DNA from: Escherichia phage ManiMatter_Bas94
Length of the DNA stretch: 64,000 bases
Sequence record: PQ850617.1
Strand: one strand, 5' to 3'
In this document: positions 1-61,303 of the stretch, in pieces
Layout: each line of letters starts with the position of its first letter
Numbering within the stretch: the first letter of the stretch is position 1
Made by a program: the position numbers and the translations under genes
The notes under the pieces: model-generated
The model's database searches: none
What the model saw: only the letters and a program-made list of their open reading frames with translations
Told to the model about the DNA's origin: nothing

Positions 1-456
1 GCTTCTAACCCGACCACTAACGTTGGTTTTGATGAAGCTGATATCTTTGATATGACTCTGCAACTGTACACCGCTGGTTCTGAAGCAGACATCATCATGA
101 TTAACCCGGCTCATGCTAAGATCTTCGCTGGTCTGCAAGAAAACACTCAGGGTTCACGTAAGCGTATCTTTGAGAACACCAAGCAGTTCATCTACGAAGT
201 TAACAGCATCACTGACCCGCTGGGCCAGAACTACAAAATCATCGTTAACCGTTGGATGCCTACCGATGCAGTTTACTTCTTCCGTAGCGCTGACTGGACT
301 CAGATGGTCCTGCGTGCTCCGAAACGTACTGAACTGGCAAAAGATGGTTCTTATGAGAAGTGGATGATTGAAATGGAAGTTGGTCTGCGTCACCGCAACC
401 CTTATGCTTCCGGAGTTCTGTTCACTGCTGCGGGAAAGTTGGATCCGCAACAGTAG
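1..456 (+). CDS. Major capsid protein, C-terminal part (5'-partial at window edge)
   Basis: Frame open from nt 1; ends ...RNPYASGVLFTAAGKLDPQQ; followed by frameshift-accessed Ig-like extension and a rho-independent terminator, the arrangement known for T7 gene 10. Confidence 0.6.
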   Translation, partial: ASNPTTNVGFDEADIFDMTLQLYTAGSEADIIMINPAHAKIFAGLQENTQGSRKRIFENTKQFIYEVNSITDPLGQNYKIIVNRWMPTDAVYFFRSADWTQMVLRAPKRTELAKDGSYEKWMIEMEVGLRHRNPYASGVLFTAAGKLDPQQ

Positions 457-974
457 ACAGTGTGACTGTTAGCCCTGCGTCTGTAGAAAGTCTAGAGACA
501 GGGGCTACTCAGCAGTTTACTGCAAGCGCTGAGAAGAGTGACGGCTCTACCGAAACAACTGGCTTTACTTGGTCAGTAACAGGAGGCGGTTCTATCACTC
601 AGTCTGGTTTGTATACTGCTCCGAGTGCGGCTCAATCCACTGATGTATCCATTACTGCGACTTTAGAGGGTGTTTCTGGTACAGCAACCATTTCTGAAAT
701 TGTTGATCCTGCCCCTACTATTGTAGCTAAGGGTCCAATTACAGGTAAAACTGGTGGTTCTTCCACTAACTTCACTACCATGTTTACTGTAACTAATTCT
801 ACTGCTGCGGATTACACGTTTGTTGTAACCCCTACAGAAGCTGGTACAGTAAGCGCCGCTGGTGCGTTAACCTTAGATGATGCTGCAAGTGGCGAAGTTA
901 CTGTTCAAGCAAGTTTGACAGCTGACCCGTCCATCAATGCAACATGCACTTTTACTGGTGTAACACCTGCTTAA
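432..974 (+). CDS. Capsid C-terminal extension reached by programmed -1 frameshift (Big_2-type Ig-like domain)
   Basis: Slippery heptamer G_GGA_AAG at 432-438, zero-frame stop 454-456, -1 frame open to 974; product VTVSPASVESLETGATQQFTASAEKSDGSTETTGFTWSV... has typical bacterial Ig-like pattern. Confidence 0.6.
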   Translation, partial: GKVGSATVDSVTVSPASVESLETGATQQFTASAEKSDGSTETTGFTWSVTGGGSITQSGLYTAPSAAQSTDVSITATLEGVSGTATISEIVDPAPTIVAKGPITGKTGGSSTNFTTMFTVTNSTAADYTFVVTPTEAGTVSAAGALTLDDAASGEVTVQASLTADPSINATCTFTGVTPA

Positions 975-982
975 AATTAGAC

Positions 983-1837: not shown

Positions 1838-4486
1838 ATGATCGTTTATAATAACCAAGCACCTGATGCAGTGAATAACGTTGGGCAGTTTGGTGCTACT
1901 GAAGGCTCTATCGGAGCTTACAAGCAAGCGGCAGAATATGCAGCTGATTCTAAGTATTGGTCACTGTTGGCAGAGGCTAAGTTTGGTACAGTTGATGACT
2001 TGATTGCTCAGGTTGAGATTCTATACAAACAAGGTGTTCTATTAAGAGAAGATATTGAAGACTTAAAACAAGACTTCATTGCACAAGATGCTCGTTTGAT
2101 GAACCTCATTGCTCAAACTAACGCAGCTGTAGCTGATGCAAATAATGCAGTTGCTCTGATTAATCAGAAACTTGTAGAAGTTCAGAATCAACTCGACGTT
2201 CTGTTGGGAATGTCTGTTGACGTAACTACACTTCCTCCGGGAACTCCGGCTACTGGCTCTTTTAATCCGAACACTGGTGTAATCTCTCTGGGTATCCCAG
2301 AAGGTGATCCCGGAAAGGATGGTTCTGTTACTGACCTATCTGCTGCTCCTACCGGTACACCGGAGCTGGGGGACATCGGTTTCTATGTTGACAAAGATGA
2401 TAACATTGTTCACAAAACAACTCTCGAAGATATTGCAAACCTGATCCCATCTGTTCGTTCTGTTTCAGTTAACGATGGCCCTGCGCTTGACGGAGAAGTT
2501 GCTCTAACGCTTAACAAAGAGACGGTAGGTTTAGGGAATGTTCTGAACGTGGCTCAGTACAGCCGCCAAGAGATTAATGATAAGTTTGACAAAACAACTA
2601 AAACCTACCAATCGAAAGCCGAAGCTGATGCGGATGCTCAATACCGACAGGTAGGAGAAAAGGTTTTGGTGTGGGACTCAACGAAGTATGAATTCTATAC
2701 TGTTGCAGCGAATAAAACCCTTACTCCGGTTAAAACAGAAGGTCGTATCCTAACTGTTAACTCCCGTTCTCCTGATTCAACTGGTAACATCGATATCGTA
2801 ATCCCAACAGGAAACCCATCTTTGTATTTAGGGGAGATGGTAATGTTCCCTTATGACCCAGCTAAAGCTGTCTCCTATCCGGGCATTCTTCCTGCGGACG
2901 GTCGTTTGGTGTCAAAAGAATCTGCTTTGGATTTAGGCCCATCCCTTATCAGTGGACAACTCCCTGTTGTTTCTGAAACAGAGTGGCAAGCTGGTGCTAA
3001 GCAATATTTCTCTTGGGGTAAATTAGCCGATGGCATCACTGATGCAGATTCTACTAACTATATCAATATCCGTCTTCCTGATTGGACAGGCGGTGAGGCT
3101 ATTCGATCCCCTGATTCTGTAAAAGATAGTGCATATAAAGGTAATGTTCAAAGTCAGGTCCCTTATGTAGTCACTGTAAATAACCAAGCTCCTGATGAGA
3201 TTACAGGTAACGTCAATATCTCCAGATCTATCTTAGGTGCTGCTGCTGCTGGTGCAAACTCTGATATAACATCTCTCGCAGGGCTTACAACAGCGCTTTC
3301 TGTCACTCAGGGTGGAACAGGTGCAAAGAATTCCAATGATGCTAAGGTAAATTTAGATTTAGACAGAATAGAGCAAGGTTCTGGAGAGACTAAGATCCTA
3401 TCTCCAAATAAAGAAACCTACATGTTTGTTGATAATGACGGGTGGGGTTGTTACCGTACCACGGCTGGGTTGGTCGGTACTGTAGCTTTGTCAGTTGAGA
3501 GAGGGGGCACTGGAGCAACAGATGTTGCTAGTGCAAGAGATAATCTAGGACTTAAATCTCTTTCTACATTAGATACTGTTCCAGTAACAAAAGGTGGGAC
3601 AGGTGCTATCACTGCTGCGGAGGCTAGGTCTAATTTAGGTCTTGGTTCTGTTGCTACTCTTAGTAACGTACCAATCGCTAGTGGTGGTACAGGTGCTAGT
3701 GATGCTGCCGGTGCAAGGTTTAATTTGGGGTTGGGAAATGTTTCTACTCTGGACAACGTACCAGTTGCTAGTGGTGGTACAGGTGCTAGTGATGCTGCCG
3801 GTGCCCGAAGCAACCTCGGAGCGCTGAGTAACACTCCAGCAAACACAGGTGCAGGTAATACTGGTGCGCGAGTCCAACATGCCACCGGAAGAGGTCTGTT
3901 TACTTTAGACATGTTTAACTGCTACTGGTATATGCAGCCAGAGGATACTAACTTCTGGGTTGCCCACGGTGTGTCATATGCAGGGCCTAATGGCGAAGCC
4001 TCAGAGTATGGTCGTATATCTTACGCAATAAAGATTGCAGATGGAACAACAAAATATGTCCATTGTCTTACAAACAAAAACACCATCATTGATACAGGCG
4101 GATTTATCAAAGCGGCATCTCCGGTAGTTAACATTTATGCCAACGGTCGGTATGAAACGAACGATGAGTCTGAGGGGGTTAGTGTCATCCGGCAGGGTAT
4201 TGGTGAATATCTGATTACCGGTTGCCTCGGTCTTAACTCTGATGCAAGATGGGGTGGGGTGGATGGGGGGTTTGAAATCCCAACAGATCGCAACAAGCAA
4301 CCTAGGATTTGGCTGGACTATGAGGTTAAAGAAGATGGTTCTATTTTAGTTAAAACCTATCACAGAACTCACCCAACCTCTCCAGTTTTTGCTAGAAACG
4401 AGATAGAAGGTTTTTCTGATGGGGACCCTATTGATATTCCAAGTGATGCTTTTATCTCAGTTCGTGTAGAGATGCCAGCTGAGTAA
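1838..4486 (+). CDS. Tail fibre protein with GGTGA/ARxNLGL repeats
   Basis: Repeated motif ...GGTGA(S/T)DAAGAR(S/F)NLGLG... about 5 times (aa ~480-640), N-terminal coiled coil. Confidence 0.7.
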   Translation: MIVYNNQAPDAVNNVGQFGATEGSIGAYKQAAEYAADSKYWSLLAEAKFGTVDDLIAQVEILYKQGVLLREDIEDLKQDFIAQDARLMNLIAQTNAAVADANNAVALINQKLVEVQNQLDVLLGMSVDVTTLPPGTPATGSFNPNTGVISLGIPEGDPGKDGSVTDLSAAPTGTPELGDIGFYVDKDDNIVHKTTLEDIANLIPSVRSVSVNDGPALDGEVALTLNKETVGLGNVLNVAQYSRQEINDKFDKTTKTYQSKAEADADAQYRQVGEKVLVWDSTKYEFYTVAANKTLTPVKTEGRILTVNSRSPDSTGNIDIVIPTGNPSLYLGEMVMFPYDPAKAVSYPGILPADGRLVSKESALDLGPSLISGQLPVVSETEWQAGAKQYFSWGKLADGITDADSTNYINIRLPDWTGGEAIRSPDSVKDSAYKGNVQSQVPYVVTVNNQAPDEITGNVNISRSILGAAAAGANSDITSLAGLTTALSVTQGGTGAKNSNDAKVNLDLDRIEQGSGETKILSPNKETYMFVDNDGWGCYRTTAGLVGTVALSVERGGTGATDVASARDNLGLKSLSTLDTVPVTKGGTGAITAAEARSNLGLGSVATLSNVPIASGGTGASDAAGARFNLGLGNVSTLDNVPVASGGTGASDAAGARSNLGALSNTPANTGAGNTGARVQHATGRGLFTLDMFNCYWYMQPEDTNFWVAHGVSYAGPNGEASEYGRISYAIKIADGTTKYVHCLTNKNTIIDTGGFIKAASPVVNIYANGRYETNDESEGVSVIRQGIGEYLITGCLGLNSDARWGGVDGGFEIPTDRNKQPRIWLDYEVKEDGSILVKTYHRTHPTSPVFARNEIEGFSDGDPIDIPSDAFISVRVEMPAE

Positions 4487-53597: not shown

Positions 53598-53676
53598 TGA
53601 GGATGACAGGATTTGAACCTGCATACTCCAATTACTTCTTTAACGACCGCTTAGAAGGCGGGGAAGATACATCCTC
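53598..53676 (-). other. tRNA-like element (perfect acceptor stem and T-arm, non-canonical body)
   Basis: Minus strand GAGGATG...GCAGG-TTCAAAT-CCTGT-CATCCTC-A; no 5-bp anticodon stem found by hand. Confidence 0.25.
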
Positions 53677-61022: not shown

Positions 61023-61303
61023 GGCAATTTCTTGCCTTGTATGTTTTACATCGTACCCGATGGAAATGAGTATACGCGAGCCTTTAGAAAGTGCAATAGG
61101 GGAAAGCAAATTATTTTAAACTTTTTCACTGTAGGGAAGATAGAAGAGCGGGCTGACGTGGTACACCATAGGAAACGGCTTGTAAAGCGATAATAGGCGG
61201 CCTAAAACGCACCACAATGAGCTAAAAGGGGATAAGGTATATAATCACCTTAGAAAAGAAAAAAGCGCCTTTATTGGCGCTTATAGGGATGATTTAAAGT
61301 TTT

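Follow-up and report, generated by a model that had tools for sequence, protein, structure and literature searches.

Introduction

Capsid gene slippage that adds Ig-like domains to the capsid protein is already known for the phage group described here. The SU10 genome paper (2014) described a potential slippage at GGGAAAG by which the Ig-like CDS10 is joined to the major head protein, in the manner of phiEco32, and reported the two SU10 forms at 38.5 and 55.4 kDa (PMC4281155). The mass spectrometry table of the same paper lists 22 peptides (50.3% coverage) for the fusion and 23 peptides (78.1% coverage) for the short form (PMC4281155). By our own arithmetic, the SU10 fusion peptides could all derive from the short form. 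For Privateer (2021), the GGGAAAG signal was reported along with two capsid bands on SDS-PAGE and mass spectrometry, and the frameshifted product was stated to have been seen in phiEco32 and SU10 (PMC7881722). The phiEco32 protein evidence is second-hand here and comes from these later papers (PMC7881722, PMC4281155). The Privateer RefSeq record carries a joined CDS. In 2023, the capsid protein of YF01 and of other phages in the group was described as having two forms, with a −1 slip at GGGAAAG adding Ig-like domains, and a −1 frame cut short by an early TAG was noted in SU10 alone (PMC9965538). This TAG is also seen in our alignment. Cryo-EM of SU10 revealed no density for an Ig protein, and gp10 was discussed as a decoration protein that was possibly lost (PMC9509320). 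The absent density on SU10 heads is explained, at least partly, by the premature −1 frame TAG. Ig-like extensions attached by −1 shifts, by +1 shifts, or in frame have been reviewed (PMC5009743).

The locus in Escherichia phage ManiMatter_Bas94 follows the arrangement of the Kuravirus group (phiEco32 gp11/gp12, SU10 CDS9/10, YF01 gp8, and Paul) and of Privateer. They have in common the SU10_MCP capsid family, the heptamer, its position, the −1 direction, an Ig-like extension, and a terminator.

Organization of the capsid locus

The window is the whole 64,000-nucleotide stretch that was analyzed (record PQ850617.1), and its first base falls within the major capsid gene of a coliphage of the Kuravirus group (phiEco32/SU10-like). 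Positions 1–1100 are 99.4% identical to Escherichia phage AidaStucki_Bas93, 99.1% identical to phage LAMP, and ~96% identical to phiEco32 and SU10. The best match over 25 kb is Bas93, with 97.3% identity over 94% of the query. The sequence places the source among the phiEco32/SU10-like podophages with a prolate head (Gordonclarkvirinae, Kuravirus group). The features of the locus are as follows.

1–456, + strand: 3′ part of the major capsid protein gene, 0 frame (Pfam SU10_MCP, SU10 homology, annotation in relatives)
432–438, + strand: slippery heptamer G_GGA_AAG (in register, invariant in relatives, rare codons)
438–974, + strand: −1 frame extension, 178 codons plus TAA 972–974 (ORF table, PHROG 13745, AlphaFold2)
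438–449, + strand: linker V-G-S-A in the −1 frame (GGGV, GSGGV, or GGSV in relatives by alignment)
450–698, + strand: predicted Ig-like domain 1, residues ~5–87, Big_2-like (sub-threshold Big_2, model strands E6–12 to E79–85, Foldseek match to LigA)
462–520, + strand: conserved RNA hairpin in the Ig coding sequence (MFE z = −2.3, RNAalifold consensus)
711–971, + strand: predicted Ig-like domain 2, residues ~92–178 (model strands E94–97 to E167–176 with pLDDT 96–98, two-domain Ig arrays in Foldseek, PHROG 33551)
979–1012, + strand: intrinsic terminator, a GC-rich 10-pair hairpin at 979–1002 plus a T-run (terminator scan)
1076–1828: adaptor gene, SU10_adaptor (ORF table, Pfam)
1838–4486: tail fiber gene (ORF table, Pfam)

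Bases 1–456 encode the C-terminal 151 residues of the capsid protein. They match SU10_MCP (Pfam PF17236) with E = 2e-33 and 116.5 bits against a cut-off of 24.1, and they are ~98% identical to residues 204–350 of the SU10 major head protein (7z45_A; E = 4e-96). The capsid gene is labeled "major head protein" in the Bas93, phiEco32, and SU10 records. The short form ends in ...FTAAGKLDPQQ at the 0-frame stop TAG 454–456. The −1 frame is open from 372, after a −1 stop at 369–371, to TAA 972–974. The ORF table contains no start codon between the stop at 369–371 and GTG462, which is the first ATG, GTG, or TTG in this frame.

A preliminary description of this DNA had placed G_GGA_AAG at 432–438 in the capsid frame, 16 nt before the capsid stop, followed by a −1 frame open to 974 and then a terminator. 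The heptamer is found at that position and in register. There are 15 bases (439–453) between it and the TAG, which is the same statement with a different way of counting. The −1 frame encodes 178 aa from 438 to the TAA, and the scan returned a terminator-like 10-pair hairpin with a T-run at 979–1002. A terminator after the extension is also annotated in the SU10, 4E8, and Privateer records.

The slippery heptamer

The capsid frame reads GCG GGA AAG over 432–438, which sets the register as G_GGA_AAG and makes GGA and AAG the 0-frame codons. This heptamer is reported to be highly shift-prone in E. coli (reviewed in PMC5009743). None of the 14 Gordonclarkvirinae loci examined departs from GCG GGA AAG, although nearby synonymous sites that flank the heptamer differ (CCT/CCG/CCA, TCC/TCT, GGA/GGC/GGT, GTT/GTC/GTA, and ACT/ACC). 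Proteus phage Privateer belongs to another family and keeps GGGAAAG, with the protein context GEGK instead of AAGK. The slip site and its frame relation are thus conserved across the 14 loci and Privateer beyond what the protein needs. The codons used are rare ones. In counts over the full capsid gene, taken from Bas93, GCG is the sole such codon among 35 Ala codons and GGA is one of 2 among 24 Gly codons. The heptamer alone is not what is non-random, since GGGAAAG is not over-represented in the window (5 copies versus 7.2 expected). What is non-random is the context: the register, a location at the end of the gene, a −1 frame that stays open over a long distance, the choice of codons, and the conservation.

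The same fusion protein would arise by transcriptional slippage, with RNA polymerase adding or deleting a base in the GGGAAA run and the ribosome playing no part. Nothing specific speaks for this mechanism. To slip productively, bacterial RNA polymerase requires a stretch of at least ~7 A or T residues. The homopolymer runs here are only 3 nt long, and the conserved X_XXY_YYZ register is predicted by tandem tRNA slippage and not by polymerase slippage. We regard polymerase slippage as exceedingly improbable, and the register points to slippage on the ribosome.

The other + strand copy of GGGAAAG in the window, at 61100, lies among short ORFs only.

The −1 frame extension

The extension matches PHROG 13745, "Ig domain containing protein," with E = 1e-81. 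Big_2 (PF02368) aligns to residues 6–82 below the Pfam gathering threshold (E = 0.001, 19.4 versus 22.8 bits). This threshold is passed by the extensions of relatives (for example, 118.9 bits for L022, 67 for Privateer, and 55 for Bas87). An AlphaFold2 model built with an input of 29 homologues has a mean pLDDT of 96.8 and consists of two tandem all-beta sandwiches that span residues ~5–87 and ~92–178. In the PDB, Foldseek ranks Leptospira LigA, with its tandem Big domains, first (8gyr, E = 3e-11); other arrays of several Ig domains come next. A sequence search returned no solved structure matching the extension. According to the model, the extension is a short linker followed by two Ig-like domains. 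The "clear" Ig-like domain claimed earlier is borne out by the predicted fold and the LigA match, but the wording was too strong for the sequence alone, in which Big_2 is sub-threshold. The further ~90 aa noted after that domain resolve in the model into the second Ig-like domain. The linker (438–449) is the most variable stretch in the codon alignment, and its indels are multiples of 3. In the model, GTG462 falls after the start of the first beta-strand of domain 1 (residues 6–12, TVDSVTVS).

Of the 14 group loci, 13 keep an open −1 frame after the heptamer, as does Privateer, and the extensions range from 169 to 459 aa. The lengths in relatives include 178, 264, 455, and 459 aa. This record bears on the idea that the −1 ORF is a relic of an out-of-frame domain insertion that lacks meaningful expression and that the heptamer is incidental. 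The 5 GGGAAAG copies against 7.2 expected would fit this idea, as would the viability of SU10, whose extension was lost through the premature TAG. GAP52 and Vp_R1 have neither a slippery heptamer nor a long −1 ORF after the short capsid gene, which would also fit. Among the 15 relatives examined that carry GGGAAAG, 14 keep the frame open for 169–459 codons, and the changes seen are synonymous-type substitutions and indels that preserve the frame. A relic explains neither this nor the invariance of the heptamer despite costly codon choices. The fold is predicted very confidently (pLDDT 96.8). Privateer virions were reported to contain the long form, and a phiEco32 long form is cited in the papers on Privateer and SU10. 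These data make an unexpressed relic highly improbable and argue for an extension that is translated.

Frameshift product or separate gene

The records of the closest relatives, Bas92, Bas93, and LAMP, annotate two separate genes. Most GenBank records give the Ig ORF a CDS of its own, entered for relatives as an "Ig domain containing protein" that begins at GTG462, and the SU10 cryo-EM paper assumed a separate gene as well. Translation would then begin at GTG462, by independent initiation or by termination-reinitiation, and would yield a free 170-aa decoration protein that binds the head non-covalently. The position of GTG462, 5 nt past TAG 454–456, is a spacing compatible with coupled reinitiation, and free Ig-like decoration proteins occur elsewhere, an example being epsilon15 gp10 (cited in PMC9509320).

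The start signals argue against this arrangement. The anti-Shine-Dalgarno pairing energy upstream of GTG462 is −0.5 kcal/mol, which is weaker than the window background mean of −1.7; the values for the next two genes are −11.4 and −9.3. The GTG itself is replaced in six relatives, by GTA in Bas87, Bas89, KBNP1711, NC-B, and ECBP2 and by ATA in NJ01. The starts called for the ORF differ between phages (1962, 1983, 2037, 2076, and 2077), and all of them truncate the first beta-strand. The first possible start in Privateer is 180 nt into the ORF. Neither a conserved start of its own nor a ribosome-binding site, the marks of a separately encoded decoration protein, was found for the Ig ORF. The codons upstream of 462 are under protein-level constraint; in the codon alignment, the residues T-V-D-S/T-V/I-T-V-S-P before this position are preserved through third-position changes. 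The lack of such density on SU10 heads (PMC9509320) also counts against a separately translated protein. We consider a separate gene very unlikely.

A covalent capsid–Ig arrangement exists in this family, because Salmonella phages 7-11 and pSal-SNUABM-01 carry a Big_2 extension in frame on an SU10-type capsid protein. The heptamer register, its conservation, the start-less ORF, the coding conservation that reaches back to the slip site, and these in-frame relatives support the central proposal of the preliminary description. We put the probability of a programmed −1 ribosomal frameshift in the major capsid gene, adding the Ig-like extension, at roughly 0.9. The sequence of ManiMatter_Bas94 indicates that the fusion protein is very probably produced by this phage. 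The calculated masses are 39.0 kDa for the short form (353 aa) and 55.7 kDa for the long form (526 aa), which agree with the 38.5 and 55.4 kDa reported for SU10 (PMC4281155). A predicted tryptic peptide, VGSATVDSVTVSPASVESLETGATQQFTASAEK, is encoded from 438, upstream of GTG462, and is obtainable only by frameshifting.

The value of this assignment is mainly one of annotation. Nearly all records in the group, including those of Bas92, Bas93, and LAMP, enter the extension as an independent "Ig domain containing protein" whose start is arbitrary, and the frameshift reading gives the right 526-aa minor capsid protein. The locus adds one more example of phage Ig-like domains joined to structural proteins by a −1 or +1 shift or in frame. 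It also points to the capsid C terminus as a place where displayed domains are naturally tolerated, comparable to the site used in T7-based phage display.

Stimulatory elements and RNA structure

Frameshift sites are usually, but not obligatorily, stimulated by an RNA structure 5–9 nt downstream or by a Shine-Dalgarno-like sequence 10–14 nt upstream. Three candidate elements were examined at G_GGA_AAG (upstream Shine-Dalgarno-like, enclosing stem, and 5–9 nt downstream), and no canonical stimulator was found among them. The GGAG at 412–415 lies 16 nt upstream, arises from the other GGA codon of the capsid gene, and is not conserved, being GGC or GGT in other lineages. The SU10 authors proposed a stem-loop around the slip site (PMC4281155). 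An alternative pairing that can enclose the site here (UGCGG/CCGCA) is no more stable than shuffled sequence (z = −0.24), and a ribosome sitting on the heptamer would unwind such pairing. A downstream element at 5–9 nt was rejected because conservation in the alignment is lowest over the 12 nt that follow the heptamer, where indels also occur.

The RNA downstream of 438, which the preliminary description had singled out for fold prediction, contains a conserved hairpin at 462–520 but no structure at the canonical spacing. The hairpin has a core stem (470–476/501–507), an inner stem (479–483/495–499), and an outer helix (462–469/512–520). In the alignment, 98% of cells are paired compared to at most 49.5% for slid partners, and 3 pairs are changed on both sides. 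The hairpin starts 23–31 nt after the heptamer, which is too far for a canonical stimulator. It also lies within conserved coding sequence. It might, for example, stall ribosomes during termination at the 0-frame stop or directly after a shift. That it is a non-canonically spaced regulator that tunes the ratio of long to short capsid protein is a doubtful proposition. If the hairpin does regulate, the replaced segment after the heptamer in the Bas92/Bas93/LAMP lineage would alter this ratio.

Proposed mechanism and function

The sequence anatomy of the locus, its conservation, the absence of independent start signals, and the predicted fold of the extension are observations; the course of translation set out here is a proposal. 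Most ribosomes would read GCG GGA AAG TTG GAT CCG CAA CAG TAG and terminate there, yielding the short capsid protein of 353 aa and 39.0 kDa. The slip would occur with tRNA-Gly on GGA in the P site and tRNA-Lys on AAG in the A site. In a minority of ribosomes, the two tRNAs would move by −1 and re-pair with GGG and AAA, and decoding would resume at G438. The product would be the 526-aa, 55.7-kDa protein, in which the VGSA linker and the two Ig-like domains follow the C terminus of the HK97 fold. Its translation would end at TAA 972–974, just upstream of the terminator. As a minor subunit, the long form would be built into the prolate head together with the short form and would expose flexible Ig-like domains on the outer surface.

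The SU10-type head contains 715 capsid subunits. The rates quoted for comparable shifts are ~3.5% for lambda G-T and ~10% for T3/T7 (PMC9965538). If slippage here occurs at similar rates, we infer that ~25–70 of the 715 subunits would be long. The long isoform might occupy specific rather than random positions in the prolate head. The probable role of the Ig domains is to bind carbohydrate weakly, either at the cell surface or in the environment, as in the general proposal for phage Ig domains.

Comparison with related phages and other systems

The window and Bas93 have TTGGATCCGCAACAG in the 15 nt after the heptamer, whereas the rest of the group has GGTGGCGGCGTAACAG. As a result of this replacement, the short form in the Bas92/Bas93/LAMP lineage ends in KLDPQQ instead of KVAA, the linker is VGSA instead of the Gly-rich GGGV, and the 0-frame stop is 6 nt further downstream. 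The extension is 178 aa here compared to 455–459 aa in Bas87/Bas89 and ~540 aa in YF01, which has an 892-aa long form (PMC9965538).

The parallel drawn earlier to T7 10A/10B holds for the −1 shift near the end of the major capsid gene, which in these short-tailed coliphages also gives a minor, longer head protein. It fails for the extension, which is not Ig-like in T7; the T3 10B extension is Ig-like (PMC5009743), making T3 the closer system. T3 and T7 use another capsid family, the X_XX of the T7 slip site is G_GU, and a long-range element located in the terminator takes part in T7 frameshifting (PMC5009743). The lambda G/GT pair is similar in its low-level −1 slippage in E. coli at a fixed ratio (~30:1, or 3.5%; PMC9965538). 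In lambda, the products serve as assembly chaperones and do not become part of the virion, whereas both products here would be capsid subunits. Lambda reportedly uses the same G_GGA_AAG heptamer and does not need a nearby RNA structure, according to Levin et al. in 1993.

Members of the Grimontviridae (Salmonella phages 7-11, pSal-SNUABM-01, and PKM.Hi.22.6, and Cronobacter phage GAP52) combine a short capsid protein with an SU10-type capsid protein that has a C-terminal extension, which in 7-11 contains Big_2 domains. Each of their two isoforms has its own gene, the genes being neighboring paralogues, and the extension is read in frame without recoding. Ig-like head decorations of the T4 Hoc type sit on the capsid surface and are non-essential. 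T4 Hoc and epsilon15 gp10 are separately translated and attach non-covalently at defined sites, in contrast to the present extension, which lacks its own start signals and would be covalently joined through recoding.

Apparent variant slip sites occur in other phages. G_GTA_AAG is found in Aeromonas phage LAh_6 and several IMG/VR contigs, and C_CCA_AAA is found in phage PJNS034. In each case, the site is followed by a start-less −1 ORF that encodes Ig-type domains.

Candidate slip sites in related capsid loci

The capsid gene ends in CTG AAG GTA AAG GCG/CCC TAA in Aeromonas phage LAh_6 and in IMG/VR contigs L022-L024 and L027. This places G_GTA_AAG in register at the position occupied by G_GGA_AAG in the Kuravirus group. 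In the -1 frame that follows, an ORF of 109-190 codons encodes I-set/Ig_3 or Big_2 domains, and neither a start codon nor a Shine-Dalgarno sequence was found near this ORF at these loci. G_GTA_AAG is probably a variant slip site. For the P-site part, G_GU is known from T7 gene 10 (PMC5009743). The LAh_6 -1 ORF is annotated as a 'putative tail protein'. Two further slip-like sites lie in register 3 nt upstream of the capsid stop. In Escherichia phage PJNS034, C_CCA_AAA leads into a 132-aa -1 ORF that matches Ig_2, Ig_3, and I-set domains; the annotation lists a separate hypothetical protein here, with its start placed 81 nt inside the ORF. In IMG/VR contig L025, A_AAA_AAG is followed by just 42 open codons with no Pfam match, and the extension there may be either decayed or very short.

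Slip-like sites in related capsid loci (coordinates of each locus)
About 1902-2183, Aeromonas phage LAh_6 (L007): G_GTA_AAG locus
About 2902-3420, IMG/VR contigs L022-L024 and L027: G_GTA_AAG loci
1917-2321, Escherichia phage PJNS034 (L009): C_CCA_AAA locus with -1 ORF
2914-3048, IMG/VR contig L025: A_AAA_AAG locus

Sequence downstream of the heptamer

The segment immediately 3' of the heptamer (window 439-453) is lineage-specific and contains a GGATCC palindrome. It is common to the window and Bas93; Bas92 and LAMP, with identities of at least 99% across 1-1100, probably carry it as well. The remaining members of the group have the G-rich GGTGGCGGCG at this position. Its appearance is that of a small replacement, not of point divergence.

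The SU10 GenBank record (L002, KM044272; 1938-1973) has a 1-nt insertion and a substitution about 25 nt 3' of the heptamer (GACACTGTCTACTG versus GACAGTGTGACTG). These changes close the -1 frame at a TAG after 11 codons and put the Ig ORF in the frame of the capsid itself, with two stops ahead of it. The early TAG was published previously (PMC9965538), and it fits the missing Ig density on SU10 heads. Mass spectrometry in 2014 assigned 22 peptides (50.3% coverage) to the SU10 fusion, the long capsid form, and 23 peptides (78.1%) to the short form (PMC4281155). Given the early -1 stop, this mass-spectrometric claim of a fusion in SU10 is doubtful.

Tandem capsid genes in Grimontviridae

Grimontviridae phages 7-11, pSal-SNUABM-01, GAP52, and PKM.Hi.22.6 each have two neighboring paralogous SU10-type capsid genes, and each paralogue is about 55-61% identical to the window capsid fragment.

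Paralogous capsid genes (coordinates of each locus)
482-877 and 973-2730, phage 7-11 (L005)
955-1911 and 1992-3092, GAP52 (L008)
991-1935 and 2010 onwards, PKM.Hi.22.6 (L030)
pSal-SNUABM-01 (L029)

The second paralogue carries a C-terminal extension in frame, which in 7-11 is 268 aa long with Big_2 domains. Gene duplication, not recoding, seems to yield the short and long capsid forms in these phages. The second copy could instead be a vertex-specific paralogue comparable to T4 gp24.

Other observations

GenBank MZ417522.1 ('Mycolicibacterium phage J1', 24,953 bp) is labeled as a Mycolicibacterium smegmatis phage, and its capsid fragment is 98% identical to the capsid of E. coli Kuravirus phages. 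The record is probably a contaminant or a partial assembly under the wrong label. An Rfam tRNA match lies at window 53598-53676 on the minus strand (33.4 bits versus a gathering score of 29); ARAGORN reported zero tRNAs in the whole window. In the window tail fiber (1838-4486), a ~23-residue motif, ..GGTGA...A(R)xNLGL.., occurs four or five times in tandem at residues about 590-700, preceding the Phage_tail_C_2 domain.
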